This document shows, piece after piece, positions 4,773 to 32,000 of a stretch of 32,000 bases of DNA; positions within the stretch are counted from its first letter, which is position 1, and every line of letters begins with the position of its first letter. A program made the translations under genes and the position numbers. The notes beneath the pieces are model-generated. The model saw only the letters and a program-made list of their open reading frames with translations. It was not told the origin of the DNA and searched no databases. The stretch comes from [Mycobacterium] zoologicum (lineage in GTDB: Bacteria; Actinomycetota; Actinomycetes; Mycobacteriales; Mycobacteriaceae): positions 74,061 through 106,060 of the forward strand of contig NZ_JAYJJS010000018.1 of assembly GCF_020181635.2 (NCBI RefSeq), read 5' to 3'.

Positions 4773-6227
4773 CTAGTGGACCCGGACGATGATCTCGGAG
4801 TGACCCAGGCGGATCACGTCGCCGTCGGCCAGCTGCCACTCCTGCACCGGGGCGTTGTTCACCGTGGTGCCGTTGGTGGAGTTCAGATCGGACAGCAGCG
4901 CCACCCGGCCGTCCCAGCGGATCTCCAGGTGCCGGCGCGAGACCCCGGTGTCGGGCAGCCGGAACTGAGCGTCCTGGCCGCGGCCGACCACGTTGGCGCC
5001 TTCGTGCAGCTGGTAGGTGCGGCCGCTGCCGTCGTCGAGCTGCAGGGTGACCGACGCCGGAGCCGAGTAGGCGCGCTGCCCGTAGTCCTGGCCGTAGCCG
5101 CCCTGGGGTTCGCCGTAGCCGCCGGGGGCGGGCTGCCCGTAGTCCTGGCCGTAGCCGCCCTGGGGTTCGCCGTAGCCACTGGGGGCCTGTTGGCCGTAGT
5201 CCTGGCCGTAGTCGTAGCCGGGCGCGGCGGCCGGGGCCTGCTGGCCGTAGTCATAGCCGGGCTGGCCTGCGGGCTGGGAGTAGTCCTGCCGGCCGTAGGA
5301 CGGGGCGCCCTGGTCGGGGTAGGACTGCCGCTGCTCGTCGGGGTAGGAGTAGTCGTTGCCGTAGCCGGGCTGACTGCCGGGGTACCCCTGCTGCTGCTGC
5401 GGGTAGCCCTGGGGCGCCTGGGGAGCTGCCTGGGGTGCGCCGTAGCCGCCCCGGTCCGGGTAGGAGGGGCGCGGGTCATAGCCCTGAGGAGCGCCCTGAG
5501 GCGGGCCCTGGGGTGCGCCGTAGCCGCCCTGGCCGCCGTGGCCGCTGGGGTAGCCCTGGTCGTAGCCGCCCTGGTCGTAGCCGCCCTGACGCGGCGGGGC
5601 GTACCCGCCCTGACCACCCGGAGCCTGCTGGTAGGGGTCGGGCTCGGGGGCGTAGTGGCCGCCTCGGGCGTCGTCGCCCGGCCGGCCGTAGCGCGGGTCG
5701 TAATAGTCGTCGCCCGGACGGTCCTGACCGTGGGCGCCGCGGTAGCTCGGGTTATCGGTCATCGGTGACACTCCTGATTCTGCGACAGACGCATGCTCTG
5801 ATAGGGGCGGGCGGGGTTCATTGACCGTCTGGCTGGGGCGGGCATCCGGATTGACAGCGCCTCGGGTGCGCACCTGACCGGTACGCAGACTCGGCGACTG
5901 CTCGAACCGGACAACCACATCACCATACGTTTGCCACCCCTGTTCGCCGATGTGTCCGGCCAAATGCCGGGCGAAGGCCTTCGACGTCAGTTCCTGGTCG
6001 GCGCCCACATTGTCGTAGTCGTCCACACCGAGGGTAATGACGTATTCGTTGGGTGCCAAAAGCTGATTGCCGGCCAACGCGCGGACTCCGGCGGCGGCTT
6101 CACGGCGCAGCGCAGCCTCGATGTCCTCGGGGACCACTTCCCCTCCGAACACCTTGGCCATCGCATCCTCCACGGCGGATTCGAGCTTGCGCTCGATGCG
6201 CTGAACCAGCCCATGCTGGCTGTCCAT
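4773..6227 (-). CDS. fhaA: FHA-domain protein FhaA with long Gly/Tyr/Gln/Pro-rich linker
   Basis: 484 aa. The conserved N-terminal domain reads MDSQHGLVQRIERKLESAVEDAMAKVFGGEVVPEDIEAAL. A low-complexity GYxQ/P linker of about 230 aa follows. The C-terminal FHA domain reads VVGRGQDAQFRLPDTGVSRRHLEIRWDG...STNGTTVN. It occupies the position of Rv0020c. Confidence 0.92.
   Translation of the reverse strand: MDSQHGLVQRIERKLESAVEDAMAKVFGGEVVPEDIEAALRREAAAGVRALAGNQLLAPNEYVITLGVDDYDNVGADQELTSKAFARHLAGHIGEQGWQTYGDVVVRFEQSPSLRTGQVRTRGAVNPDARPSQTVNEPRPPLSEHASVAESGVSPMTDNPSYRGAHGQDRPGDDYYDPRYGRPGDDARGGHYAPEPDPYQQAPGGQGGYAPPRQGGYDQGGYDQGYPSGHGGQGGYGAPQGPPQGAPQGYDPRPSYPDRGGYGAPQAAPQAPQGYPQQQQGYPGSQPGYGNDYSYPDEQRQSYPDQGAPSYGRQDYSQPAGQPGYDYGQQAPAAAPGYDYGQDYGQQAPSGYGEPQGGYGQDYGQPAPGGYGEPQGGYGQDYGQRAYSAPASVTLQLDDGSGRTYQLHEGANVVGRGQDAQFRLPDTGVSRRHLEIRWDGRVALLSDLNSTNGTTVNNAPVQEWQLADGDVIRLGHSEIIVRVH
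5076..5177. repeat. Tandem 57-bp (19-codon) direct repeat inside the fhaA linker
   Basis: The 45-nt string ctgcccgtagtcctggccgtagccgccctggggttcgccgtagcc occurs at 5076-5120 and again at 5133-5177. It encodes repeated GYGEPQGGYGQDYGQ units. Confidence 0.85.
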
Positions 6228-17249: not shown

Positions 17250-17303
17250 AACATATATGAACAGATATGCCGAACGCAAGAGAAGGTGATAAAAACATAT
17301 ATG
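17250..17303. promoter_or_regulatory. AT-rich divergent promoter region with two copies of AACATATATG (palindromic core CATATATG)
   Basis: Copies lie at 17250-17259 and 17294-17303, 44 bp apart. The second forms the 10-bp palindrome acatatatgt. They sit in the most AT-rich stretch between whiB5 and the XRE gene. Confidence 0.5.
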
Positions 17304-17356
17304 TAACTAGTGAAGGGCCAGGCTGTGTACTATCCGGACATGGCCTGGGCGCAACG

Positions 17357-18127
17357 ATGAGCCGTGAGGCAGCGGGCGCGGCCATCCGGGCCCTGCGGGA
17401 GGCGCGCGACTGGTCGCTGGCAGACCTCGCCGCCGCCACCGGCGTCAGCATCATGGGCTTGAGCTACCTGGAGCGCGGAGCGCGCAAGGCTCACAAAAGC
17501 ACAGTTCAGAAGGTTGAGAATGGGCTCGGCCTGCCGCCGGGCACCTATTCTCGGCTGTTGATGGCCGACGATCCCGACGCCGAACTCGCCCAGTTGATGT
17601 CGGTCGCCGCACCTCCAGCGTCGTCTGCCAGGCCCGCCGGAGCGGTCGTCGTCGACCGCCACAGCGACACTGAAGTCCTGGAGGGATACGCCGAAGCGCA
17701 ACTCGACGCCCTGCGTTCGGTGATCGCCAGACTGCCTTCGGAAGCATCAGACGAATACGAGACGTATATTCTTTCCGTGATCGCGCAGTGCGTGACGGCG
17801 GAGATGTTGGCGGCCAGTTCCTGGCGGGTGGCCGTCAACGCCGGCGCCGGTCACGCGGACCGGCTCATGGCGCACCTGCAGGCGCTGGAAGTCACCCGCG
17901 CCGACCTGTTGGCCCGGATGCCCGCCAGCCTGACCAGCCGGTTCGACCAGGCGTGCACACGCTCGGCGCTGCCGGAACCGGTGATCGCCGGGTTGCTCGG
18001 CATCACCGTCGAGGAGATGTGGGACATCCGGAACACCGGCGTGATCCCGCCGGGAGCACTGGCCCGGGTGCGCGCGTTCGCCGACGCCGAAGCAACCGAC
18101 CGACACAACGAGGGGGCGCAACGGTGA
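17357..18127 (+). CDS. XRE-family helix-turn-helix transcriptional regulator (Rv0023-like)
   Basis: 256 aa starting MSREAAGAAIRALREARDWSLADLAAATGVSIMGLSYLERGARK (HTH_XRE). A second HTH-like segment lies near the C-terminus (LPEPVIAGLLGITVEEMWDIRN). The stop overlaps the next gene's GTG start. Confidence 0.82.
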   Translation: MSREAAGAAIRALREARDWSLADLAAATGVSIMGLSYLERGARKAHKSTVQKVENGLGLPPGTYSRLLMADDPDAELAQLMSVAAPPASSARPAGAVVVDRHSDTEVLEGYAEAQLDALRSVIARLPSEASDEYETYILSVIAQCVTAEMLAASSWRVAVNAGAGHADRLMAHLQALEVTRADLLARMPASLTSRFDQACTRSALPEPVIAGLLGITVEEMWDIRNTGVIPPGALARVRAFADAEATDRHNEGAQR

Positions 18128-18948
18128 ACAGTGAGCTGGACCTGCTGACCAGGGCCCACGCGCTCTTCGGCGCCGGGGGGCAGCCGGCGACGTTGGATGC
18201 CGGACTCGATCGCTATGCCGATCTGCTGGAACGGAACGCGAACAGCTACACCGGCCCGGCGCACGAGCGCTATCGGCAGACGGTAGGTGCCCAGCGGGCA
18301 CGGCTGTTGGCGAATGCGCGTACCGATGCGGCCGCAACGGCTGTGCTGGCCGCCGCGTTCGCCGACCATGCCCACGGCCGGCAGCAGACGGCAGGGGTAC
18401 TGGCCGCGGCGCGCGCCGACGGGCCGGCCGCCGACTCTCCGCTGGCGCAGCGGGAGGCCATGCGCCGGCGCGCGGCACGACTGCGAGCCCAACGTGCCCA
18501 CGTGCTCTCGGCACACCGGCGTGCCCGGGCGCACCGGGCCGGGTTGGCACGGCTGCGGTATCGCGGTGCGCGACGTCGTGTGGACCCGAATCGGTTGCGG
18601 CTGCCCAACACTCGCGCCGGGGCGGCGGTGCGTGCGGCGCTGTCGCGGATCGGCAGACCGTACGTCTGGGGTGCCACCGGGCCGGACCGATTCGACTGCT
18701 CGGGCCTGACCCAGTGGGCGTACCGCCAGGCCGGCGTACCGCTGTCGCGCACCACCTACACCCAGATCTACGACGGAATTCCGGTGGCGCGCTCCGAGAT
18801 TCGGCCAGGTGACCTGGTGTTCCCCAGCACCGGCCACGTCCAGATGGCGATCGGGAACAATCTGGTGGTCGAAGCCCCACACCCCGGTGCGGCGGTTCAG
18901 ATCAGCCCGCTGGGCGGATATGTCGCGATTCGGCGCCCGGTGTCCTGA
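18124..18948 (+). CDS. NlpC/P60 cysteine peptidoglycan endopeptidase with long helical N-terminal region (Rv0024-like)
   Basis: GTG start overlapping the XRE stop (GTGA). The C-terminal domain GRPYVWGATGPDRFDCSGLTQWAYRQAGV...PGDLVFPSTGHVQMAIGNN...EAPHPG carries the Cys and His catalytic residues. I see no N-terminal signal peptide. Confidence 0.82.
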   Translation: MNSELDLLTRAHALFGAGGQPATLDAGLDRYADLLERNANSYTGPAHERYRQTVGAQRARLLANARTDAAATAVLAAAFADHAHGRQQTAGVLAAARADGPAADSPLAQREAMRRRAARLRAQRAHVLSAHRRARAHRAGLARLRYRGARRRVDPNRLRLPNTRAGAAVRAALSRIGRPYVWGATGPDRFDCSGLTQWAYRQAGVPLSRTTYTQIYDGIPVARSEIRPGDLVFPSTGHVQMAIGNNLVVEAPHPGAAVQISPLGGYVAIRRPVS

Positions 18949-19026
18949 GGAGTCCACAGCCCCCGGTCGGGTGAATTGTCGGCGTCGCGTGCCCTGCGTA
19001 GTGTCACCGGCCATGGAGCGGTCAGC

Positions 19027-20373
19027 GTGACGACTCGCGACGACGTGTTGGACGTGATTCACCGGATCGAGACGGCCGGGAACGCGGGTGAGGCGACGCG
19101 TGCGGCACAGGCCGCCTTGACTCTGCCGCTGCCGTCGGCGGGTTATGACCGGGTACTGGATCAGCTGCGCACGGCGTATCCGCGAATCGTCGGCGCGGCA
19201 GCTACCGAGCAGCAGGGCGCCGCAGCACAGGCCATGAAGGAAGCTGAAGCGGAACTGCGCCAACAGCTCTCGGCAACAGCGGAATTCGACCGGCACATCC
19301 TAGAAGCGTTGCGTCACGCCGGCCAGAACACAGTGGAGGGCCGTCGCCGCCTCGACAACCTGGAGGCCGAGATCGTCGGCGCGGCGCGGGCGTGGGATCT
19401 GAGCACCGCGGCCGGGTCCCGCGAGTTCCAGCGTTACCTGATCGGCAAACTGGGCGAGATCATCCGGGTGGTCGCCGCAGCCGACGACGACGACACCGCC
19501 AAGCAGGAGCTGACGACCGCGCTCACGGCGTTGTACACCGACAACACCGGCCGCGATGAGTCATCACCGGCCGCGCAGCCCCCCGCGGGTGTCACCGACC
19601 CGGTGTTGATGCCCGATGTCCCGGCAAAGGCAGGTCCCGACGAGGAGGATCCCTGGCTCGACCCCGACCTGGACGACGCTTACCTCGACGACGAACTGGA
19701 GCCCGAACCCGGTCCTGCGGCCGCAGCGCACTACCAGCCCGGGATGCCGTCGATGCCCCCGAACTTCGGCGGCGAATCGCCGGGCTTCGGCGGAATGCCG
19801 GCGGGGATGTCGCCCGGTTTGCCGCTGGCCGGACTGGGCTCGGACCCGTTCGACGACATCGGTGACCAGGAGTACCCGAGAGAGACCGAGGCCGAAGACG
19901 CTGGGCCGGAGGACAAGGCTGACACGGACACCGCCGCCGACGCTGATGACGCCGGCGGACCCGCACCGGAGCCTCCGGCCGACGACGGGCCGGTGACCGT
20001 GCGGCTGCCGGACGGGCAGACCACTAGCGTCGCCGATCCGCAGCTGGCCGCAGCCATGCAGGCCGCCGCGGACGGCACGCCGGTGGCGGAGGCGTTCCGT
20101 CGGCAGGGGATCGCCATCCCGCCGCCGGGCACACCCGTGACCGCCCCCGTGGACCAGGCGCAACTTCAGCCCGGTGATATCGGGGTGTTCACCGACCGCC
20201 ATGCGCTCGCCGTGGGCGATGGCCGGGCCCTGCTCGACGGGCAGCTCCACCTGGCCGGCAACCTGCGGGGGCCCGGATTCCTGGGCTGGCAGCATCCCCC
20301 GATCCGCGCCGGCGGGCCGGCACCGGTCCCCGAACCCGTCCCTACACACACCGCCGGCTACCGGTGGGCTTGA
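19027..20373 (+). CDS. Large hypothetical protein (Rv0026-like): helical N-domain, acidic/Pro-rich linker, degenerate NlpC/P60-like C-domain
   Basis: The reading frame is open from TTG at 18976. I prefer the GTG at 19027 (VTTRDDVLDVIHRIE), which has GGAG about 11 nt upstream and gives 448 aa. See findings for the C-terminal similarity to the neighbouring NlpC/P60 domain. Confidence 0.7.
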   Translation: MTTRDDVLDVIHRIETAGNAGEATRAAQAALTLPLPSAGYDRVLDQLRTAYPRIVGAAATEQQGAAAQAMKEAEAELRQQLSATAEFDRHILEALRHAGQNTVEGRRRLDNLEAEIVGAARAWDLSTAAGSREFQRYLIGKLGEIIRVVAAADDDDTAKQELTTALTALYTDNTGRDESSPAAQPPAGVTDPVLMPDVPAKAGPDEEDPWLDPDLDDAYLDDELEPEPGPAAAAHYQPGMPSMPPNFGGESPGFGGMPAGMSPGLPLAGLGSDPFDDIGDQEYPRETEAEDAGPEDKADTDTAADADDAGGPAPEPPADDGPVTVRLPDGQTTSVADPQLAAAMQAAADGTPVAEAFRRQGIAIPPPGTPVTAPVDQAQLQPGDIGVFTDRHALAVGDGRALLDGQLHLAGNLRGPGFLGWQHPPIRAGGPAPVPEPVPTHTAGYRWA

Positions 20374-20419
20374 AAATCGCCGTCTCAACCGTCATCGTCG
20401 ACTAGCCAGGGAGGTAAAC

Positions 20420-20734
20420 ATGCCACAGGAGATCCACGTCAACAACGCCGTGCTCACCAAGGCGGCCGGAAACCACCAAGAGACGTCCGAATACCTGGCT
20501 ACCGTGTCGGCCTCCCACGAGGGCATCCGGGCGATGCTGAGCTCGCTCGGGCCGATCTACGGTGACCTGCGTCAGGCCGCGGACTCGATGCTCGACGCCC
20601 GCAAGGGCTGCTACGACAGCCAGGCAGGCGAGCATTCGGACGTGGCCGGCAACCTGCACGGCGCAGTGTCAACGTGGAACAAGCACGAAGACGACGCGGC
20701 CAGGTCCTTCCGGAACCTCACCGATGGGCGCTGA
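20420..20734 (+). CDS. Small helical protein of the EspC-like / type VII secretion target family (Rv0027-like)
   Basis: 104 aa starting MPQEIHVNNAVLTKAAGNHQETSEYL... A GGAGG sequence lies upstream. The length and the helix-turn-helix-hairpin style pattern resemble EspC/DUF2580-type proteins. This family call is by eye only. Confidence 0.6.
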   Translation: MPQEIHVNNAVLTKAAGNHQETSEYLATVSASHEGIRAMLSSLGPIYGDLRQAADSMLDARKGCYDSQAGEHSDVAGNLHGAVSTWNKHEDDAARSFRNLTDGR

Positions 20735-21048
20735 TGACTGAGCCGAATCCGGCATATGACACCGCGCATCCCAGCGGCGACGTGCTGTTCCGGTCCTGCC
20801 GCGGCGGTTATCTGCACAGCGTGGCGCTGAGCGAGACAGCCATGGGGGCCGACGTCTCTCGGCTGGCCGAGGCGATCGTGCTGACGGCCGAGGTGTCGTT
20901 CCTCAAGGCGGCGTTGGAGATCCGGGCCGACATGGTCACCACCGGGCACGCGCCCTCAGCTGCGGTGCCCACCAACGACGATCTTCGGGTGGCCACCGAG
21001 CGTCTGGTGGAACACCGACTGCACGGCGACCGGCACACCGGGCGTTAA
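20734..21048 (+). CDS. YbaB/EbfC-fold (EspL-like) small protein (Rv0028-like)
   Basis: 104 aa starting MTEPNPAYD. The start shares one nucleotide with the upstream stop (TGATG). The core GDVLFRSCRGGYLHSVALSETAMGADVSRLAEAIVLTAEVSF fits the YbaB-like pattern. Confidence 0.6.
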   Translation: MTEPNPAYDTAHPSGDVLFRSCRGGYLHSVALSETAMGADVSRLAEAIVLTAEVSFLKAALEIRADMVTTGHAPSAAVPTNDDLRVATERLVEHRLHGDRHTGR

Positions 21049-21285
21049 GTCACCCACTGCCCGGCGGCATCGGCCCTCGGTGCAATGCCGTCGGGTGCGT
21101 CGATCACCGTGTCACCGAACAGGTTTCGGGCGCGCTCCAGCAGCGCGAGCACTTCGCTCAGCGTTGCTTCACATCCCGTACCCGGGGACCCGACGTCGGC
21201 CATGAAATGCACGCTACCGACCTGCTGTGGGGCTGACAATTCACGACACACAGGGGTTGGGGATAGCCAACGGTACGCTTGCGCG

Positions 21286-22887
21286 GTGGCACTATTCGGT
21301 CGACGGTCGGCGCGCCAGCGCCTCCGGAGCGCGGCCCGGGAGTCGCTGACGATCCCGGCGTTCAGCGCTCCGGTCGACTGCAGTGCCTGGGTGCTCGGCG
21401 GACTGTGGCCCGCAGAGTTGGCGACGGTGACGCCGGCGACGGCTCAGCTGGCCGAGTACCTGGACGCCGATCTGCGGCGCATTGCAGATTCGGCGAACGA
21501 AAAGCTGCATGCGATCGGTCGATCGGGGCTGGCGGGTCAGGCGCGGCAGACCGCCGAGTCCAGAGTGATCAACGTGGCCAGGGCGTTCGCCGTACTTCGG
21601 GTGGAGTCGACGGTGCGCTATCTGCACAACGAGGCCCTGGAGTTTCGTCCGCAGTACGCCAGCCTGAATTCGGCCCCGCCCCCGGCGGCGGTGACCGAGC
21701 AGATCCCGGCCCCGGTAGAGCCGGAACCCGTCGCGGTGGAACTGCCTCGCCCGGTCGATCCGCCCCCGGAGGCCCCGAGACCCGCGGCCCGTCATCGGAT
21801 GCCGGAGCCGGTCGTGGTCGAGGCGCCGCCCGCACCGCTTCCCGAGCCCGAGTCCGAGCCCGCGCCGGTCCCGGAGGTGGCGGAGCCGGCTCCCGAGGTG
21901 CCGGTGGCGGAGGAGCCGGTTGTTGTGCCGCCGGTTGTTGTGGAGCCCGTGTTGGTGGAACCGGTGGTGGCGGAGCCAGTGGTGGAGCCACCGGTTGAGG
22001 TTGTGCTTCCGGTCGAGGTGGTACCAGTCGTCGAGGTGCCCGTCGTCGAGGTGCCGGTTGTGGTCCCGCCACCGGAGCCGGTGGTGGCCCTGCCGCCCCC
22101 GCCCGAGCCGGTTGTGGTCAGGCCGGAGTCTTCCGAGCCGACGGTTCTCATTCCGGTGGAGCCCGAACCGCCCGTCGTCGTCGCGGCCGAGCCCGAACCG
22201 CCCGTCGTACCCGCCACGCCACCCCCGGCCCCGCCGGCCGTGACCGAATCCGATGACCAGCGCCTGCAGCGCCTGCTGGCGTTCGTCGCGCGGCAGGAGC
22301 CCGGCCTGAGCTGGGCCGTCGGCAGCTTCGCCGACGGCAAGACCGTGCTGGTCACCGACTTGGCCCACGGCTGGATCCCGTCCGGGATCGAGCTGCCGGC
22401 CGAAGTGCACCTGCTCGGTCCCGGGCAACGAACCGGCACCGCGGCCGCCATGCTGGGCGACGCAACGGCGTCGGCCATTTACCACCCCGGCGATCGGCTG
22501 GGCTGGGCCAGCGACTTCGGCGTGACCGAAGCCTCGGTACAGCCTCGCGAACTGGACGCCGTCGACGACCTCGGCTGGCAGCTCAGTGAGGCCACCCACT
22601 GGCGTGACGGGCTGCCGCGGATGGCCAACACTCTGGTGAAGGCTGGTGCGACCGGCACCGGTGTGGCCGACGCTGAAATCGACTTACTGCGAGTGCATCT
22701 GGACACCGTGCGCTATCAGCTGCTCGCGCAGTATCCCGGCGCCGACGCCGCTCTGGTGCTCAACTGCATGCTGCTGGCCGCGACCGAGGGCATCGCCGCT
22801 GGCGATGGGGTCTCGGCCAACTACCACTACAGCTGGTTCCGTGCGCTCAGCGCTCCGCAGCCCAGCCAGTGGGACCCGCAGAAGTAA
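21286..22887 (+). CDS. Large Pro/Val/Glu-rich protein with conserved C-terminal domain (Rv0029-like)
   Basis: The frame is open from 21085. I favour the GTG at 21286 (VALFGRRSARQRL). Layout is a helical N-domain, then about 190 aa of PEPV/PVVE repeats, then a C-domain (LQRLLAFVARQEPGLSWAVG...VLVTDLAHGWIP). That C-domain is paralogous to the partial ORF at 31293-32000. The start codon is uncertain. Confidence 0.7.
   Translation: MALFGRRSARQRLRSAARESLTIPAFSAPVDCSAWVLGGLWPAELATVTPATAQLAEYLDADLRRIADSANEKLHAIGRSGLAGQARQTAESRVINVARAFAVLRVESTVRYLHNEALEFRPQYASLNSAPPPAAVTEQIPAPVEPEPVAVELPRPVDPPPEAPRPAARHRMPEPVVVEAPPAPLPEPESEPAPVPEVAEPAPEVPVAEEPVVVPPVVVEPVLVEPVVAEPVVEPPVEVVLPVEVVPVVEVPVVEVPVVVPPPEPVVALPPPPEPVVVRPESSEPTVLIPVEPEPPVVVAAEPEPPVVPATPPPAPPAVTESDDQRLQRLLAFVARQEPGLSWAVGSFADGKTVLVTDLAHGWIPSGIELPAEVHLLGPGQRTGTAAAMLGDATASAIYHPGDRLGWASDFGVTEASVQPRELDAVDDLGWQLSEATHWRDGLPRMANTLVKAGATGTGVADAEIDLLRVHLDTVRYQLLAQYPGADAALVLNCMLLAATEGIAAGDGVSANYHYSWFRALSAPQPSQWDPQK
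21670..22250. repeat. Low-complexity Pro/Glu/Val coding repeats (PEPV, PVVE, EPEPPVV units)
   Basis: Visible in both DNA and protein. For example, gagcccgaaccgcccgtcgt occurs twice about 30 bp apart near 22159 and 22189. VEVPVVEVPVVV and AEPEPPVV are both repeated. Confidence 0.8.
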
Positions 22888-22936
22888 GGCCGGCATTGAA
22901 TTGACGCTACTCACACGGGCTCGACATACTAAGTGA

Positions 22937-23245
22937 ATGTCGGGGCCGGACAGTCGCACGGAACTCAGCGACAGGGACCTCGTCGAGTCCGTGCTGCGGG
23001 ACCTGCGTGAGGCCGCGGAGAAGTGGGAAGCGCTCGTCGCGGAAGCCGAAAACACCACGTACAGCGTCGATCTGGGTGACGTGCGGGCGGTGGCCAATGC
23101 GGACGGGCGGCTGCTGGAGCTGACCCTGCACCCCTGTGTGGTCACCGATTACACCCACGGTGAGTTGGCGGATCGCCTCAACATGGTGTTCACCGCCCTG
23201 CGCGAAGAGGCGGTGGCCGACTTCGAAGCCCGGTACGGCAGCTAG
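22937..23245 (+). CDS. YbaB/EbfC-fold (EspL-like) small protein (Rv0030-like)
   Basis: 102 aa. YSVDLGDVRAVANADGRLLELTLHPCVVTDYTHGELADRLNMVFTALREEA fits the YbaB-like core. Confidence 0.6.
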   Translation: MSGPDSRTELSDRDLVESVLRDLREAAEKWEALVAEAENTTYSVDLGDVRAVANADGRLLELTLHPCVVTDYTHGELADRLNMVFTALREEAVADFEARYGS

Positions 23246-25035: not shown

Positions 25036-26013
25036 TCAGGCGTCGGCCGGGAACCAGTAGTCCAGTGTCTGCTCGACCCCGCCCCAGTCGACGCCCAGCC
25101 AGTCGCCGAAGAAGCCTTCGATGTTGCCGAAGGCGCTGTAGACGAACGCCACGGCCGAGTAGAACAGGCCGTCCCACCAGGCGCTGTCGACCAGGCCGTG
25201 GCTCCAGGCGTTGACCCAGGCGCCGAACTGGTCGAAGTCCCCGGAGATGTCGATGTTGGTGATCATGCCGTCGGTGCTGGACGTGTGGTTGCCGACCTCG
25301 GCGGGGGACAGTCCCAGATACATCATGTGCTCGTAGAACAAGCCGAGCCCATCGGTGGAGGTGGGGTCGGTGACCGGGTCGCCGGGAATCGTGTAGTCGG
25401 TTACCGCGAACGCGTTCGTCGGGGTCTGGACGCCGTTCAGCAGAGCGGTGTCGAAGAAGTCGGGGGACGAGGCCCCGCCGCCGTCCAGCGACGCGGTATC
25501 CGCACCAACGGGATTGCCGATGAACACGAAGTGCAGAAGGTTCGGGTCGACGCCGTCGTGGGCCAGCTGCGCCATTGCGATCGAGCCGGCCGTCGCACCC
25601 TGCGACCAGCCGAACACCCACAGCGGGTGGTCGGCGTCGTAGGCGTCCGGGTTGGCGGCGAGTTGGGCGTGTACCTCGCGCACGATCTCGGCCGCCCCGA
25701 CGAAACTGCTGTGCCCCTGCTGGACCAGCGCCGGGGTGGACAGCAGCAGCAACGACCCGTCGCACCCGGCGGAACCGACCACGCATGCGGTCGGGTCGTC
25801 GCCGACGTCGAAACCCAAGGGGCGCAGGTACAGATCAGCCGCGGTCTCGGCGAACGTCGCCGACGGCGTCGACAGGATGGTCGGTCCGACGAAGATCGCG
25901 GTGTCGGCAAGCAGGTCGATATCGACGTACGCGGCGTGGACGGTGGGTGCGGCCAGGACGCTGCCGGCGACCGCACCGGCGATGGCCATCGGCGCGATCG
26001 CTCTGGTCAGCAT
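25036..26013 (-). CDS. Secreted stand-alone PE-PPE-domain serine hydrolase, copy 1
   Basis: I place the start at MLTRAIAPMAIAGAVAGSVLAAPTVHA, which is signal-peptide-like. The nucleophile elbow is FGWSQGA (GxSxG). The C-terminal part contains the PGDPV motif. It is near-identical in layout to the divergent neighbour. Confidence 0.8.
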   Translation of the reverse strand: MLTRAIAPMAIAGAVAGSVLAAPTVHAAYVDIDLLADTAIFVGPTILSTPSATFAETAADLYLRPLGFDVGDDPTACVVGSAGCDGSLLLLSTPALVQQGHSSFVGAAEIVREVHAQLAANPDAYDADHPLWVFGWSQGATAGSIAMAQLAHDGVDPNLLHFVFIGNPVGADTASLDGGGASSPDFFDTALLNGVQTPTNAFAVTDYTIPGDPVTDPTSTDGLGLFYEHMMYLGLSPAEVGNHTSSTDGMITNIDISGDFDQFGAWVNAWSHGLVDSAWWDGLFYSAVAFVYSAFGNIEGFFGDWLGVDWGGVEQTLDYWFPADA

Positions 26014-26181
26014 CCTGGGCCCCTCCACCCGCAAGCTAAAAATCACACGAATAAATCACAAGAGTGAGCTGAGGGCGATCATGGCAGGGACCTCCGTCGA
26101 AGTCAACGGATCATTGACTCTCGCAGGCAGAGAATGCCACTATTGCGTCTTCGGCCGTCTCTCGTCCTAGGAGCCTCCGCA

Positions 26182-27162
26182 ATGATCGCAACCCGAGCGT
26201 TGGCGCCGGTCGCCGCCGCGTTTACCGTCGCCGCCGGCGTCCTCGGAACGCCCGTCCTGCCGACCACCTGGACGCAGGTGGCGCTGCTGGCGGACACCGC
26301 GATCTTCGTCGGCGGCACCATGCTGTCCACGCCGTCGGCGACATTCGCGCAGACCGCGGCCGATCTGTACCTGAACCCGTTGGGTTTCGACGCCGGCGAC
26401 GACCCGACGGTGTGTGTGATCGGTTCCGGCGTCTGCGATTCCCCACTGCAGGTGTTGACCACCCCGGAACTGATCCTGCAGGGGCACAGCAGTTTTGTCG
26501 GCGCGGCGGAGATCGTGCGGACGGTGCAGGCCGAGCTCGCCGGGAACCCCGGTGTCTACGACGCCGAGCATCCGCTGTGGGTGTTCGGCTACTCGCAGGG
26601 TGCGACGGCCGCCTCGATCGCGATGGCGCAGCTGGCGCACGACGGTGTCGACCCGCGGGCTTTGCACTTCGTGTTCATCGGCGACCCGTCCGATGCGGAC
26701 GGCGTCAGCGCCACCAACCAGAGCGACACTCCATGGGACAGGCTTTTCGACATGCCGATACTGAACGGCAACCTGACCCCGAACGACGCGTTCCCGACGA
26801 CCATCTACACGTTCCCGGGCGACCCCGTCGCCGACGCCGCCTCCAATTCGATGCTCGGCCTGTTCTACGAGCACATGATGTACATGGGGCTCACGCCGGC
26901 GCAGGTTGCCGACCAGACGAAAACTGTCGACGGCATGATCACCAACGTCGATATCTCCGGGGACATCGATCAGTTCAGTGCCTGGATCAACTCGTTCGGA
27001 CACGGGTTGCTCGACAGCGCCTCGGTGGAAGCGCTCTTCAATTCGCTTGTGGCCCTTGTGTACAGCGCCTTCGGCAACATCGAGGGCTTCTTCACCGACT
27101 GGATGGGCATCGACTGGGGCGGGGTCGAGCAGACGCTGGACTACTGGTTCCCGGAGGCCTGA
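26182..27162 (+). CDS. Secreted stand-alone PE-PPE-domain serine hydrolase, copy 2
   Basis: I place the start at MIATRALAPVAAAFTVAAGVLG. The nucleophile elbow is FGYSQGA. The protein is collinear with copy 1 along its whole length. The C-terminus FGNIEGFFTDWMGIDWGGVEQTLDYWFPEA compares with FGNIEGFFGDWLGVDWGGVEQTLDYWFPADA in copy 1. Confidence 0.8.
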   Translation: MIATRALAPVAAAFTVAAGVLGTPVLPTTWTQVALLADTAIFVGGTMLSTPSATFAQTAADLYLNPLGFDAGDDPTVCVIGSGVCDSPLQVLTTPELILQGHSSFVGAAEIVRTVQAELAGNPGVYDAEHPLWVFGYSQGATAASIAMAQLAHDGVDPRALHFVFIGDPSDADGVSATNQSDTPWDRLFDMPILNGNLTPNDAFPTTIYTFPGDPVADAASNSMLGLFYEHMMYMGLTPAQVADQTKTVDGMITNVDISGDIDQFSAWINSFGHGLLDSASVEALFNSLVALVYSAFGNIEGFFTDWMGIDWGGVEQTLDYWFPEA

Positions 27163-27167
27163 CCGAA

Positions 27168-27190
27168 TCGCGCTAGTTGCGCTAGCGCGA
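27168..27190. promoter_or_regulatory. Palindrome upstream of the second vapBC operon (candidate operator)
   Basis: tcgcgctag-ttgcg-ctagcgcga has 9-bp arms and lies 20 nt upstream of the antitoxin ATG. It also contains the self-complementary gcgctagcgc. Confidence 0.45.
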
Positions 27191-27209
27191 ATCCTGGAAT
27201 CTCCCTACC

Positions 27210-27452
27210 ATGGCCTCCATGGAGACGATCAGCAGCACAGACGCCAAAAACCAGCTCAATCGGCTCTTGAACGACGTCAAATCCGGTGCTTCGTTCACCA
27301 TCACCAGCCACGGCAAGCCGGTTGCGCAACTGGTGCCAGTCGCGGCCGTCCCACGCAGATTTGGTCAGCTGCCAAGCGTCGCCGTTCCCGATGACTTCGA
27401 CGCCGCACTGCCGGCAGCAGAACTCGAGGCATGGGACGGGTCCCAGGGGTGA
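27210..27452 (+). CDS. vapB: Phd/YefM-type antitoxin
   Basis: 80 aa. METISSTDAKNQLNRLLNDVKSGASFTITSHGKPVAQLVP is the typical Phd/YefM fold signature. Confidence 0.85.
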   Translation: MASMETISSTDAKNQLNRLLNDVKSGASFTITSHGKPVAQLVPVAAVPRRFGQLPSVAVPDDFDAALPAAELEAWDGSQG

Positions 27453-27838
27453 ATGTCCTACTCGACACCCACGTACTGCTGCGGCTGGTCAGTAACCCCT
27501 CGAATCTGGCTCCCGAAACGCTCGCGATCTTGTCCGACCCCGGGACCGACCTGTGGGTGACGGCCGCGTCGGCCTGGGAGATCGCAACCAAGACCCGGTT
27601 GGGGCGCCTCGACGGTGCAGCGTTGTTGTCGACATGGACCGACGTCATGACCGACATGAGCTGTTCGGAACTGGCGATCGACTCCGCCGACGCGATCCTT
27701 GCCGGCCGACTTCCCTGGGAACACCGCGACCCGTTCGACCGGATCATCGTCGCCCAAGCGTTACGACGCAATCTCACCATCGCAACCCGTGATGCCAAGA
27801 TCATCGACGCGGCGATCACCCCGACCCTGACAGGGTGA
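27449..27838 (+). CDS. vapC: PIN-domain toxin VapC
   Basis: The GTG at 27449 overlaps the antitoxin stop (GTGA). An alternative in-frame ATG lies at 27431. The acidic residues lie in LLDTHVLL, SAWEIATK, DRIIVAQA and IATRDAKI. Confidence 0.85.
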   Translation: MNVLLDTHVLLRLVSNPSNLAPETLAILSDPGTDLWVTAASAWEIATKTRLGRLDGAALLSTWTDVMTDMSCSELAIDSADAILAGRLPWEHRDPFDRIIVAQALRRNLTIATRDAKIIDAAITPTLTG

Positions 27839-27897
27839 ATTGACGGTAAAAAGTTCGCCTGCCACGATCGCCGAAAGACGATCGAGGGGAGGTCGGG

Positions 27898-28212
27898 ATG
27901 TTCGTCGATCCGGCGATGCTGACGGCGGGTGCAGCCCATGCCCACACGGCGTCCGAGCACGCCCAAGCAGGCGCGAAGGAGCTGGATCAGCGCACGGTAA
28001 CGGCGGGAATCTTCGGGGGCTTCGGCGCGGCCGATGTCTTCCACCAGGCGATTTCGACCAGTCACGCCGAGCACGTCACCACGCTCAATGATCACCGCCG
28101 GACGCTGGCTGATGTCGGGGACAAGGCCCACCTCGCCCGGCGGGCGTTCCTCGGCATGGACCATGAAGCCGCGGCCCAACTGCGTGGGGTGCGGTGCAAC
28201 TCCAACATCTGA
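27898..28212 (+). CDS. Small all-helical EspC-like / type VII secretion target-like protein, candidate partner of the downstream toxin
   Basis: 104 aa starting MFVDPAMLTAGAAHAHTASEHAQAGAKEL... A GAGGGGAGG sequence lies upstream. Same size class and layout as the 20420 gene. Its 3' end overlaps the downstream GTG start by 19 nt. Confidence 0.6.
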   Translation: MFVDPAMLTAGAAHAHTASEHAQAGAKELDQRTVTAGIFGGFGAADVFHQAISTSHAEHVTTLNDHRRTLADVGDKAHLARRAFLGMDHEAAAQLRGVRCNSNI

Positions 28213-29690
28213 ATCTGCCGTGGCTCATCGAAGCCGCCGGCGGTGATCCGTGGCAGGTCAACAGCACCCTGCAAAGCGGCAATCCGGGCGTCGTCGACGA
28301 GCTGGCGCAGGCCTTCCACAACGCCGCTTTGTGTACGTCCGAGTCCAGTGCGGCGTTCACCGAGGCGGGGAAACGCTTCCGGGCCGCGTGGAACCGGGAG
28401 AACGGTGAACACCCGATCAACGACTCCCTGGAAGTTCAGCGCGCCACCCAAACCCTGCACCTGCAGCAGAACCAGCTCCTCGCGATTGGCACCGATCTGG
28501 AGAACATCGCCGCCGCGCTGGCTGAGGCTCAGCGCGACGCGGCGGACAAGATCGCCGCACTGGAGACGCAGCTGCAAAACATCGACGACCACATCGGCGT
28601 CTACCTCGACGCCGACGCCGACGTCTCGGACCTGGTGCAGATGGCTGCCGACGACACCGCCGGGATTCTGCATCAGATCGAAAAGATCCGCGACGACTAC
28701 GCCGCGACACTTCAAGCCGCAACGGCCAAGCTGTTGTCCGACGGCTACGACCCGGTGGCCCTGCACGGCTACGACGGCGACGGGCAGCCGACGCTGGACC
28801 AGCAGACCGACCGCGCCGCCGATGCCTACGGCACCACCCAGCGCGACCACGACCAGCAGCTGGTGGACGAGCCCGGCGAGATGACGCCGGAGAAGGCCGA
28901 AGCCGCTGCGCGCCTGCGCGATTACGCCACCGTCAGCGACCCCGCGGCCGATCCGGATGCCCGACGTCTCGCCGGTGAGCGCCTCGATGACTTCCGGATG
29001 GCTAATTTTGTTGGGCAGCTGCCGCCGGACATGGTGTTGGGCGGCGATGCCCGAAGCAACGCGGCCAATCGGTTGGACATGCAGCGCCGCCTGGAATCTG
29101 GAACCGTGCATCCCGATATCGCGCCGATGACTCCGGATCAGGCCACCCGAGCCCTCGACGAGGCTGAAACCGTCGCCCGCGCTTGGACACTCACCAGCTT
29201 CGCCGACCGACTTCGCAACAGCGGAGTGTCCCCGGGAGGCGTCACGCGGGCTGTCACCGCAATCAGGAACGGGATCCCGGCCAGGGAGTTCTTCGACCAG
29301 CTCTCGAACGCCTCCGGCAGCGTAGGCAAGGGACTGGCGAAATACGGAGAAGTATTATCTCCGGCGGATCACCGAATCAACCCGAGCGCGTACACCAAGG
29401 CCGACGCCGCGGCGTTGGCGAAATTCGGCAGGAATCTCGGCGGTGCGGCGACTGTACTGGACGGTGCACTAACCTTGATCGACGTGGTGAACGGCGATAT
29501 CTCGCCGAAGCAGGGTGTGGCGGAATTTGGTGGCCGTTGGGCAGGGGGTGCAGTAGGTGGATGGGGCGCGCTTGTTGCAATGTCCTTCTTGGTCGCACCG
29601 GAGATAGCCGTGCCCGTCGCAGTGGCCGGTGGCGTAATCGGCGGCTCCAAATTGGGTCAAACAGCCGTCGATAAACTGCTGGGATACTAA
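28194..29690 (+). CDS. Candidate polymorphic toxin: helical N-terminal (T7SS-targeting-like) region plus C-terminal double glycine-zipper hydrophobic hairpin
   Basis: 498 aa with a GTG start. The N-terminus reads NLPWLIEAAGGDPWQVNSTLQSGNPGVVDELAQAFHNA and is followed by coiled-coil-like helices. The last 60 aa or so read GGRWAGGAVGGWGALVAMSFLVAPEIAVPVAVAGGVIGGSKLGQ, with repeated GxxxG spacing. The function is inferred, not demonstrated. Confidence 0.55.
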   Translation: MQLQHLNLPWLIEAAGGDPWQVNSTLQSGNPGVVDELAQAFHNAALCTSESSAAFTEAGKRFRAAWNRENGEHPINDSLEVQRATQTLHLQQNQLLAIGTDLENIAAALAEAQRDAADKIAALETQLQNIDDHIGVYLDADADVSDLVQMAADDTAGILHQIEKIRDDYAATLQAATAKLLSDGYDPVALHGYDGDGQPTLDQQTDRAADAYGTTQRDHDQQLVDEPGEMTPEKAEAAARLRDYATVSDPAADPDARRLAGERLDDFRMANFVGQLPPDMVLGGDARSNAANRLDMQRRLESGTVHPDIAPMTPDQATRALDEAETVARAWTLTSFADRLRNSGVSPGGVTRAVTAIRNGIPAREFFDQLSNASGSVGKGLAKYGEVLSPADHRINPSAYTKADAAALAKFGRNLGGAATVLDGALTLIDVVNGDISPKQGVAEFGGRWAGGAVGGWGALVAMSFLVAPEIAVPVAVAGGVIGGSKLGQTAVDKLLGY

Positions 29691-29691
29691 C

Positions 29692-30333
29692 TTGAATTAT
29701 GCACTGATCATCGCAGGCGGTCTCTGCCTTTTCGCCGGTGGGCTGCTTGAGCATCTAAAGGTGCCGTTGACGACAAAGCGTCGCATGTACTGGTATCTGG
29801 CGGCACTGTCGGGGATACTTTGGTTCCTAGCGGGCTACCCCAATCTTGAGAATATGCTCGGTTTCCTCGCCATGGCATTGGTAATCCAGCTGGGATGGGC
29901 ATATGCCCACACGCCATATATTCGCATAAATGGCAAAATTTACGCGTTTGAATCAAAGTATGTAAACATCGAATCGGAAAATGGCCCGGACGAACTTCGG
30001 CGGCGCAATGAATTTACTACACCGACCAAGATGTGGTGGGTAGTTGCATTTTGGCCGATAGTGATTTGCGCCGCGATATGCAGTTCATTTCTGCCGGGCC
30101 GTGAAGGATTTAGTATTCACAACGACGGTGCGTGGATTCTCGGTTTGCTCGGATACTGCCTGTTCTTCGGAATCGTTGTGGGCCGAGGCGAGGCGAAGCT
30201 CGACCGCTCGATCGCGCAAGGACAATGGCCCCAGTTCATCATCGCGTCGATATGCTCAGCGGGTCTGTTCGCCGTGTTCTATCTGACGGCCTACCACGCG
30301 ACCATGCTGGTGAGGGAACGACGGGAAGACTGA
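29692..30333 (+). CDS. Polytopic (about 6 TM) membrane protein, candidate immunity protein
   Basis: 213 aa. The TTG start lies 1 nt after the toxin stop. An alternative in-frame ATG lies at codon 32. Hydrophobic segments are YALIIAGGLCLFAGGLL, YWYLAALSGILWFLAGY, MLGFLAMALVIQLGWAYA, MWWVVAFWPIVICAAICSSFL, AWILGLLGYCLFFGIVVG and FIIASICSAGLFAVFYLTAY. It uses many A/T-ending codons, unlike its neighbours. Confidence 0.6.
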   Translation: MNYALIIAGGLCLFAGGLLEHLKVPLTTKRRMYWYLAALSGILWFLAGYPNLENMLGFLAMALVIQLGWAYAHTPYIRINGKIYAFESKYVNIESENGPDELRRRNEFTTPTKMWWVVAFWPIVICAAICSSFLPGREGFSIHNDGAWILGLLGYCLFFGIVVGRGEAKLDRSIAQGQWPQFIIASICSAGLFAVFYLTAYHATMLVRERRED

Positions 30334-30357
30334 CTGGGCGCTGCCTTCCCAGCCGCC

Positions 30358-31296
30358 TTACTTCGACGAATCCTTCTTGTCCACAATGCGTTTCAGCGGC
30401 GTGATGCCGGGGTGGCTGGCGTCCTTGGTGGCGGACTTCGTCACCGGCACGTTCGGGGCGGCGGTGGTCCGACCCTTGACCGGTTGACCGTTGGGCATGC
30501 CGGGGGTCGTGATCCGCTTCGACTCGGTCGGTCCGTCTTTGCCGCCCTTGCCGCCGCCGCCCGCTCCGCCGGGCATCATCGGCATCATTCCGCCACCGCC
30601 GCCACCCGGTCCGGCCGCCCCACCTGGGGCGCCGGCCATTCCACCTTTGGCCATGGCGCTGGCCGGTGTTGTCGGTGTCGAGGTGCCCGGGACCGGTGGC
30701 GGGCCGAGATTGCTGGCCGGCGTGGTACCCATGCCGAGCCCGCCGCCGCTTCCCCCGGAGCCCGAGATTCCGGTCGATCCAAGATCCGGGTGGACGTTCG
30801 AGGCAAGTGTGGTGCCGCCGAGGCCGCCTTTGGCCAGCGACATCAGCGGCGACAGCGCACCCTGGCCGGCCTGCATCAAGCCCTGCGGCACTTTGCCCAC
30901 CGAGCCGAGCACGCCACTGAGAGCGCCGGTGACGCCTTGCAGCGCGCCGGTGACGCCCTGCATGGCGCCGCCCATCGCGTCCTGAGGTGCCTTTCCGGCC
31001 AGGGCGGCGTCGCCCTTGCCGGCGAGCTTCTCGAACTGCGACGCCGCGTCGGCCTCATGCTCACTGAACTTTCGCACCGCGTCTAACGCATGCCCGGTGC
31101 GGTCGGCGTGGTCCCCGGCGATGTCGGTGTTGGTCCCGGGGAGGTCGGCGTTGGTCGCGGCGCCGAATGCCGCAGCGTTGGCGTCGGTGGACGAGACGCC
31201 GCCAGTGTGGACGGGAGCAGGCGCAAGCGGAGTCGGAGGGGCGCTCATGCCGGTCTGCATGTATTTCTCAAGCTCGGCGATGACGTCGTTGGTCAT
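30358..31296 (-). CDS. Gly/Ala/Pro-rich low-complexity protein, possible ESX-associated substrate
   Basis: 312 aa. The helical N-part reads MTNDVIAELEKYMQTG...ALDAVRKFSEHEADAASQFEKLAG. QGVTGAL repeats follow. Gly runs and MMPMMPGGAGGGG recall the C-termini of PPE/Esp proteins. The start overlaps the upstream gene's stop (ATGA). Confidence 0.6.
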   Translation of the reverse strand: MTNDVIAELEKYMQTGMSAPPTPLAPAPVHTGGVSSTDANAAAFGAATNADLPGTNTDIAGDHADRTGHALDAVRKFSEHEADAASQFEKLAGKGDAALAGKAPQDAMGGAMQGVTGALQGVTGALSGVLGSVGKVPQGLMQAGQGALSPLMSLAKGGLGGTTLASNVHPDLGSTGISGSGGSGGGLGMGTTPASNLGPPPVPGTSTPTTPASAMAKGGMAGAPGGAAGPGGGGGGMMPMMPGGAGGGGKGGKDGPTESKRITTPGMPNGQPVKGRTTAAPNVPVTKSATKDASHPGITPLKRIVDKKDSSK

Positions 31297-32000
31297 GGCT
31301 TCAAACCTCCGTACCGCACCGTCACGGCCTGGTGCCAGGCCAGGTGGTAGCGGGCGAGTTCTTCACTTCCGTCGATCAGGGCGTCGACGGCCGCCAGCAG
31401 CATCCAGTCCGCGACGTCTTTGGGGGCGTGCGCCGGATATGCCGAGAGTACTCGTGTCCGCGTCGCATCGACCACCTGCTGGAACAGTTCGATTTCATTG
31501 TCGGCGGCACCGTATCGGCGGGACACGGCCTGCGCGACGGTCTGCACGATGCGCGGCAGACGCGAATTGGCTCCGACGGTGTCGATCAGCGTGGGGCCCA
31601 ATTCGTCGACGCGCTGGCCGTGGCGGGCGCGTTCCCCGGTACCGGGAATCGGGTCCTGCGGATCGGCGCCAGCGATGTAGGTGTTCGGCTGGTGGGAGGC
31701 CACGGCCACCACCGCACCCAGAAGGTCGACCGCGCTGGTGTCCCGGCGGCGCTGCGCGGGGCTGAGAAGGGTCACACCTGGTGGGAGTTTGACGGTGGGG
31801 GGAATCCAGCCGCCGGCCAGATCGGTGACCAACACGGTGGTGGACTCGTCGTCGCGCAATCCGGCGGCCCATGCCAGTCCCGGTTCCTGACGGGCGACGG
31901 CGTCAACTTTGCGCTGCAGATCCTGTTGCTCGGCAAGACGTTTGCCGGCAGTACCAGCGCCGGCCCCAGCCGTTCCGCCGGCCGCCGCGCTGCCGGCCAT
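31293..32000 (-). CDS. Rv0029-like C-terminal domain protein (paralog of 21286..22887); 5' end probably beyond the window
   Basis: VARQEPGLAWAAGLRDDESTTVLVTDLAGGWIPPTVKLPPGVTLLSPAQR aligns with the C-domain of the 21286 gene. The frame stays open to the window edge, so the apparent ATG at 32000 may be internal. Confidence 0.7.
   Translation of the reverse strand: MAGSAAAGGTAGAGAGTAGKRLAEQQDLQRKVDAVARQEPGLAWAAGLRDDESTTVLVTDLAGGWIPPTVKLPPGVTLLSPAQRRRDTSAVDLLGAVVAVASHQPNTYIAGADPQDPIPGTGERARHGQRVDELGPTLIDTVGANSRLPRIVQTVAQAVSRRYGAADNEIELFQQVVDATRTRVLSAYPAHAPKDVADWMLLAAVDALIDGSEELARYHLAWHQAVTVRYGGLKP

Follow-up and report, generated by a model that had tools for sequence, protein, structure and literature searches.

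The stretch of DNA analysed here, referred to as the window, comprises 32,000 nucleotides of the [Mycobacterium] zoologicum genome (4.83 Mb, 67.7% GC; contig C18:74061-106060), and its best protein matches come from Mycolicibacter species. Three tightly coupled genes on its plus strand encode, in this order, a DUF2563 protein, a PF22905 protein with a glycine-zipper tail and a protein with five to six transmembrane (TM) helices. The first product is a small helical partner of 104 amino acids (27898..28212; Pfam PF10817, E 2.4e-27) that also gave weak Pfam matches, below cut-offs, to EspC (0.0065) and WXG100 (0.079); the end of its gene overlaps the start of the second gene by 19 nt. The second product (28194..29690; 498 amino acids) is a candidate secreted membrane toxin consisting of the PF22905 helical N-terminal domain, a conserved middle and a variable tail, in which residues 451-487 (29544..29654) were delineated by hydropathy as a glycine-zipper hydrophobic hairpin. 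The third gene (29692..30333) starts with TTG 1 nt past the toxin stop codon and encodes a polytopic membrane protein of 213 amino acids with 5-6 hydrophobic segments, the candidate immunity protein. A hypervariable AT-richer cassette (29319..30209), made up of toxin codons 376-498 and immunity codons 1-172, spans the border between these last two genes and is the subject of this analysis. The labels 'toxin' and 'immunity', and likewise export by an ESX system, are used in a putative sense, as we infer them from sequence.

In a 200-bp sliding window the GC content fell from ~0.66 to 0.47-0.56 across 29600-30200 and reached 0.70-0.75 past 30400. The 213-amino-acid open reading frame (ORF) has a GC content of 0.533 (0.547/0.435/0.617 at first, second and third codon positions, GC1/2/3) in a genome of GC 0.677, and the GC3 of the neighbouring genes is 0.77-0.87. 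Equally AT-rich windows of 642 bp make up 0.14% of those genome-wide (4.83 Mb; mean 0.678, sd 0.035), and low-GC islands number 22 in the whole genome. An index resembling the codon adaptation index (CAI) was derived from ORFs of at least 400 amino acids (genome mean 0.645 +/- 0.10); it amounted to 0.682 for toxin codons 1-375 (28194..29318; GC3 0.821), 0.476 for toxin codons 376-498, 0.412 for immunity codons 1-172 and 0.598 for immunity codons 173-213 (30209..30333; GC3 0.756). The shift in codon usage begins at ~29320 and recovers at ~30210, inside the 3' end of the 213-amino-acid gene, and composition is back up ~120 bp ahead of the stop codon at 30333. The drop in composition is real and far beyond chance.

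An earlier note on this DNA had described an AT-richer stretch with a shift in codon usage that ran from about 29330, inside the 498-amino-acid ORF, to the convergent stop near 30333. The stretch and the shift were borne out by the GC, GC3 and CAI-like profiles, and the left boundary agrees with the onset of the codon shift and with divergence breakpoints at 29319-29343 (see below). The right boundary had to be moved to ~30210, inside the immunity gene and ahead of its last TM helix. The drop placed at ~29330 holds for GC3 and codon usage, in which most of the change within the toxin gene lies, and not for total GC, which is still ~0.61 there; a two-breakpoint likelihood fit placed the maximum-likelihood GC trough at 29650-30180 (0.500 inside versus 0.665 outside).

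Low GC could in principle reflect nothing but the residue composition of a membrane protein, or low expression, unrelated to DNA exchange. GC1 (0.547) and GC2 (0.435) are low too, and amino-acid content therefore contributes to the low GC. Against such an origin, the 213-amino-acid ORF is an extreme outlier among the 244 long ORFs with at least four predicted TM helices: both its GC and its GC3 are the minimum for that set, no other member having GC <= 0.5335 or GC3 <= 0.617, and the GC3 of the class is 0.852 +/- 0.062. The shift also sets in where the toxin gene still encodes soluble protein and stops within the membrane gene, at the divergence breakpoints. The 244-gene comparison led us to reject membrane-protein composition as the source of the low GC, and we consider this explanation very improbable. 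The earlier note had itself proposed membrane genes, and rodA (1348-2760, minus strand) in particular, as the comparison that might undo the composition shift; since the GC3 of rodA is 0.917, the shift withstands that comparison.

The dip in GC is shared by relatives. In all Mycolicibacter orthologs the downstream gene has a GC content of 0.54-0.59 versus 0.65-0.66 for the locus, and GC3 is 0.53-0.73 in the last 80 toxin codons versus 0.78-0.84 in the N-part of the toxin gene. More distant loci have the dip as well (L013 at 0.52, L040 and L043 at 0.60; L numbers denote loci in relatives). Low GC thus belongs to the cassette in every relative and is not peculiar to this genome. These data bear on the possibility that the segment was recently imported into this genome alone from a low-GC, non-mycobacterial donor. 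In favour of an import, the segment is one of just 22 low-GC islands and a word-based search gave only eight homologs of the 213-amino-acid protein. Against it stand the presence of the gene pair and the dip not only in every Mycolicibacter ortholog but also in mycobacteria further removed, the fact that the named toxin-gene homologs and the record titles of loci holding the pair are all mycobacterial or from related metagenome-assembled genomes, the spread of the immunity family over 217 divergent clusters and the lack of mobility genes inside the cassette. Because no orthologous locus lacks the dip, the cassette represents an old polymorphism common to the whole family and exchanged among mycobacteria, and not a foreign import; a one-off acquisition from a low-GC donor was ruled out on these grounds and is the least credible of the explanations considered here.

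Divergent blocks between related loci were located by nucleotide sliding windows together with the two-breakpoint likelihood fit. For the window locus (L005) versus L095 the block was 29319..30209, with a divergence of 47% inside and 14% outside; for L096 versus L033 it was 29343..30228 (42% inside, 1% outside), and the comparison of L033 with L035 returned the same coordinates. Nucleotide identity in the N-part up to ~29330 was 82-93% for the window versus L095 and 97-100% for L096 versus L033. On the right, identity between the window and L095 rose from ~46-52% (windows 30085-30231) to 67-81% (windows 30172 to 30321), and that between L096 and L033 returned to 88-100%. L096 and L035 are 99-100% identical across the block and mostly 76-90% identical upstream of it (60-71% near 28,530-28,670). 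In the proteins the left junction corresponds to toxin residues 376-384 and the right junction to immunity residues 173-179, directly ahead of the last TM helix.

Amino-acid identities were tabulated for three segments: the N-part (residues 1-322), the tail (residues 323-498) and the downstream protein. L096 and L033 share 98, 70 and 51% identity in these segments, L096 and L035 86, 96 and 98%, the window and L095 88, 67 and 40%, and the window and L036 83, 25 and 21%. Across 11 loci the N-part identity was 72-96% and the tail identity 25-94%. A second tail-and-immunity type is common to L036, L037, L038 and L054; tail types A and B each come with a matching downstream gene, and the junction between types A and B lies further upstream, near 29024 (~residue 277).

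Maximum-likelihood trees were calculated for the N-part (27898-29318) and the cassette (29344-30208). The approximately unbiased (AU) test rejected an L096+L035 clade on the N-part data (p 7e-66) and an L096+L033 clade on the cassette data (p 4e-51); the p-values are descriptive, because the groups were chosen post hoc from the known identity matrix. By its sequence L096 is a clear recombinant, in which an N-part close to that of L033 is joined to a tail and an immunity gene close to those of L035. Two chromosomal contexts house the operon: in context A (this window, L094 and L095) a Gly-rich gene and a DUF5632/5631 gene lie on its right side, and in context B (L032, L096, L097 and others) a TetR gene and an MPAB_Lcp_cat gene lie on either side. 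Context-A cassettes split into two cassette clades, each of which also holds context-B loci, and exchange therefore also crosses chromosomal sites. Tail codons 376-498 and immunity codons 1-172 are exchanged en bloc, both from strain to strain and from one of the two chromosomal sites to the other, by homologous recombination in the flanking arms, which are the toxin codons up to ~375 (the 3' portion of the conserved N-part) on the left and the conserved 3' end of the immunity gene, encoding the last TM helix and tail, on the right. Taken alone, a recombining hypervariable cassette at this locus is highly probable. The proposal in the earlier note, that a C-terminal toxin domain and its immunity gene were acquired or swapped as a unit onto a resident N-terminal part, accordingly stands as regards the swap, with its breakpoints common to independent strain pairs, tree conflict and recombinant L096, and falls as regards a recent foreign acquisition, given the dip in all orthologs.

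GC content tracks conservation along the locus (Spearman 0.80, p 6e-7; 90-nt windows, six alleles). The low GC may be explained by a cassette core that is too diverged for internal recombination and is subject to diversifying selection; it would then drift towards AT while the arms stay GC-rich. A finer pattern was seen in L094 (95% protein identity to the window), for which the synonymous divergence dS rises from 0.077 in the N-part to 0.123 in the tail and drops to 0.013 in the immunity gene. The two toxin genes differ at 58 nucleotides, 19 of which are clustered within 92 bp (29429..29520); L094 is otherwise 97-100% identical. This patch suggests a short conversion tract or local selection on the tail without a change in the immunity gene.

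In the 498-amino-acid protein PF22905 ('hydrolase N-terminal helical domain') covers residues 2-180 (E 2.5e-64) and was the only Pfam match; LXG is absent from the 25 most-matched of 42 Pfam families found with 62 family members, and WXG100_2 was weakly matched by 24 of the 62. This architecture is common across mycobacteria: at least 424 homologs were found, many of them full length (~500 amino acids), with 61 loci in species-representative genomes. The AF2 model (62 sequences) is confident for residues 1-360, and residues 368-498 have a predicted local distance difference test score (pLDDT) below 50. When the full model was submitted to Foldseek, the best PDB matches were PPE41, PPE15 and PPE4 (TM-score to target 0.52-0.65), each the larger member of a PE/PPE pair of type VII substrates.

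The tail gave no Pfam or NCBIfam match and is one homologous domain throughout the ~500-amino-acid family. Gly-zipper Pfam models gave weak matches in five of the 62 family members and in one paralog (C7, see below), and family profiles covering this region weakly matched the hairpin-containing half of the colicin Ib (E 0.004) and pyocin S5 (E 0.005) pore domains. Within the otherwise hypervariable tail His393, Asp404 and Pro469 are invariant in the 62 members (consensus PxGRH...SxADA), a set that could represent a functional motif and not merely a membrane hairpin. In a Mycolicibacterium subgroup (L045-L050, L064 and L066; ~5500-5900 in each) a GGGGKSW-type extension terminates the tail. In these loci the ORF picked downstream is short (~110-170 amino acids), with two TM helices apparently in some only, and has no similarity to the 213-amino-acid family at the thresholds used, one weak match in L066 excepted.

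Two more PF22905 genes were found in the same genome. The paralog on contig C24 has a DUF2563 gene upstream, as do PF22905 genes in relatives, and fuses PF22905 to an alpha/beta-hydrolase (Abhydrolase_8) C-terminal domain. The C7 paralog (G000 contig C7:142146-145703; L003:700-2070, minus strand) has 456 amino acids and combines PF22905 with another Gly-zipper tail; in place of DUF2563, a PknH_C-domain protein is encoded upstream of it. The differing C-terminal modules of the paralogs indicate that PF22905 is a carrier domain. Four EccB loci, all on other contigs, show that ESX systems are present in this genome.

The 213-amino-acid protein has no relative in Pfam (so no DUF443 match), NCBIfam or PDB, and a PDB profile search gave only chance matches to G-protein-coupled receptors. 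At least 27 of the related loci fetched have a homolog (21-98% identity) immediately after the tail, and the family alignment contains 12 invariant columns. Compared with the eight homologs from the word-based search, a profile search of 1.84 billion representatives returned 217 clusters at 50% identity, 135 of them with E <= 1e-10. The family is real, evolves fast and is undescribed.

Several relatives carry additional copies or remnants of the cassette genes. The toxin gene is followed by three tandem immunity-family genes in L043 (5475-7952) and by two in L040 (5475-7471). L057 (6272-7043) has a decayed second tail fragment, in another frame and with stop codons upstream, and then a short immunity-like gene; alignment against the tail profile with hhalign gave nothing for the small ORFs L043 6259-6606 and L057 6294-6581. 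L029-L031, from three metagenome or isolate sequencing runs, align to the window at the syntenic site only from 29160 on and contain a 5'-truncated toxin (residues 323-498 at 64% identity) together with an intact immunity homolog of 220 amino acids. Tandem immunity arrays, an orphan tail and a truncated toxin beside an intact immunity gene are hallmarks of polymorphic toxin loci. The L029 locus adjoins EccB/EccC. In L029 (4812-6663) and L031 (297-2148) an opposite-strand PIN-CcdA pair takes the place of DUF2563 and the first ~322 toxin codons, and both the tail ORF and the immunity gene are intact.

Directly upstream of the operon and outside the cassette, the window contains a PhdYeFM-PIN toxin-antitoxin pair on the plus strand (27210..27838; Pfam PF02604 and PF01850), and such pairs abut the cassette in both arrangements (PhdYeFM-PIN in the window, PIN-CcdA in L029-L031). 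The pair is kept in L094 and is gone from L095 along with 26108-27162; when window positions 26108-27777 were compared with positions 1-405 of L095, an 80%-identical relative, a second copy of a PE-PPE-domain hydrolase and PhdYeFM-PIN were missing from the latter. This part of the upstream flank differs between strains by an insertion or deletion. The convergent right flank (30358..32000, minus strand) encodes a 312-amino-acid Gly-rich protein and a DUF5632/DUF5631 protein of ESX-associated type (Pfam PF18646 and PF18645 at 31293-32000) and is syntenic in L029 and L095. The wider surroundings of the operon (window 17267-23245 and 30358-32000) include ESX-associated genes for a DUF4226 protein, DUF2710 and two DUF5632/DUF5631 proteins. 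An Rfam scan of 26000-32000 gave one chance miRNA match, far under threshold, and nothing else.

The mechanism that we propose begins with the DUF2563 protein and the PF22905 N-terminal domain, which would probably form a helical pair exported by an ESX (type VII) system. The last ~120 residues, with the invariant His and Asp, amphipathic helices and the glycine-zipper hairpin, would probably insert into the membrane of a neighbouring cell and depolarize it, and the downstream protein with its 5-6 TM helices would probably protect the producer. That the locus is a recombining hypervariable cassette composed of the tail of an ESX-exported membrane toxin and most of its immunity gene is, as a whole statement, the account we favour, with some reservation.

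Several observations weigh against it. The colicin-like character of the tail is a lead only, because the profile matches are weak, the Pfam Colicin model is absent from the 25 most-matched of 42 families (62 members, E <= 1) and the AF2 model of the tail is unusable (pLDDT 30-48 as part of the full-length model and 44 for the tail on its own, with 31 sequences). The Foldseek E-values for the PPE proteins (0.4-1) are non-significant, inspection by eye revealed neither a conserved WxG nor a conserved YxxxD/E export motif, and this contig is devoid of ESX core genes. The genome itself has no orphan cassette, orphan tail or second immunity copy. Within type A the similarity rankings of tail and immunity protein are imperfectly parallel, and in L094 the tail differs from that of the window and the immunity gene hardly does (seven differences in the whole gene). 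Finally, L096 is a Logan contig and could conceivably be a chimeric assembly; the L005/L095 and L033/L035 pairs repeat its breakpoints.

An alternative is that the two proteins are an ESX-associated tail-anchored membrane protein and its polytopic partner, the contact surfaces of which diversify for another reason, for instance kin or mating-identity recognition or evasion of phages that have them as receptors; the cassette would move by recombination all the same. All of the evidence for cassette exchange applies equally to such a pair, the locus lies among ESX-associated genes of unassigned role (DUF4226, DUF2710 and DUF5631/5632), and Pfam matched neither an enzymatic nor a toxin domain. 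In the distributive conjugal transfer of M. smegmatis, mating identity is set by polymorphic genes linked to esx1. The arrays of downstream genes in L043 and L040, however, fit protection from the toxins of others better than an obligate partnership, as do the intact downstream genes beside a truncated or decayed tail in L029-31 and L057. The same carrier domain also bears a hydrolase in a paralog, and the layout matches that of a characterized toxin-immunity pair, TspA/TsaI. We therefore regard a partnership without a toxin as unlikely, though less so than the two explanations of the low GC set aside above.

Known systems offer points of comparison for the preferred toxin-immunity interpretation. 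TspA/TsaI of Staphylococcus aureus, a membrane-depolarizing toxin and immunity protein of a type VIIb secretion system (T7SSb; PMC7456083, PMC9484751), is the closest counterpart with experimental backing. TspA has 469 amino acids, with a helical N-terminal domain and a polymorphic C-terminal channel-forming domain predicted to be colicin Ia-like, and TsaI is an immunity protein with five TM helices encoded by the gene adjoining tspA (PMC7456083). The locus contains immunity arrays and toxin fragments, and recombination at tsaI is reported to be slight, with homology confined to a 5' block (PMC9484751). Shared with it are a protein of ~470-500 amino acids with a helical N-terminal export domain (putative here), a polymorphic C-terminal domain with one or two hydrophobic helices and a colicin-Ia-like prediction (weak here), a polytopic membrane immunity gene (a candidate here) directly downstream, immunity arrays and toxin-fragment remnants (here in relatives) and a position away from the secretion gene cluster. 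The present locus differs in its N-terminal domain, PF22905, which is not LXG-like, in its DUF2563 partner, in an immunity family without a DUF443 match and in its host, an actinobacterium with ESX (T7SSa) systems. Cassette exchange is clear here, and the immunity gene has a conserved 3' arm.

The LXG toxins EsxX and TelE require a C-terminal glycine zipper for membrane toxicity (PMC12744356, PMC10434224). They resemble the present protein in the glycine-zipper tail, the small helical partner, the immunity gene beside the toxin gene and type VII export (presumed here); they belong to Firmicutes T7SSb, whereas no LXG domain and no sequence similarity to them were detected here. Colicins Ia and Ib and pyocin S5 share the weak profile matches over the hairpin half and a small polytopic inner-membrane immunity protein; the present protein has no Pfam Colicin match and carries a type VII-like N-terminal domain in place of receptor and translocation domains. 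The arrangement of a small helical protein encoded just upstream of a larger one recalls PE/PPE heterodimers, and the model of the N-terminal domain is nearest to PPE41/PPE15/PPE4, but Pfam matched no PE or PPE family, the similarity in Foldseek is non-significant, and a membrane tail with a linked membrane gene is foreign to PE/PPE. In Rhs and contact-dependent growth inhibition (CDI; CdiA-CT/CdiI) systems a conserved core of typical GC is followed by an AT-richer variable tip and immunity gene; orphan tip-immunity modules occur, and tips are replaced by recombination. The present locus is like them in its conserved core, its AT-richer variable tip and immunity gene, the orphan modules (here in relatives) and the swapping of tips by recombination; the proteins are unrelated, as are the secretion routes and the demarcation motifs, and a single family of tip folds is seen here versus many toxin folds there. 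A mosaic event in an Rhs system is cited in PMC9484751.

More broadly, the PF22905/DUF2563 operons may constitute a widespread, undescribed family of interbacterial pore-forming toxins delivered by ESX (T7SSa) systems in mycobacteria, with a colicin-like tail, a new polytopic immunity family and tip-immunity cassettes shuffled between strains and sites, the persistent AT-richness being a side effect of a core whose divergence prevents recombination; we put this forward tentatively, as an attractive possibility that we would not yet expect to hold in full. For Firmicutes, antibacterial toxins of type VII systems are amply documented. Literature searches found no paper on the function of PF22905 or DUF2563 and no experimentally characterized antibacterial toxin-immunity pair exported by a mycobacterial ESX system. 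The locus is a testable candidate for such a pair, with defined cassette boundaries, several natural alleles at one site and a natural recombinant. In a high-GC genome, a local dip in GC3 or codon usage can mark a resident hypervariable cassette and not foreign DNA, which helps in the interpretation of 'genomic islands'.

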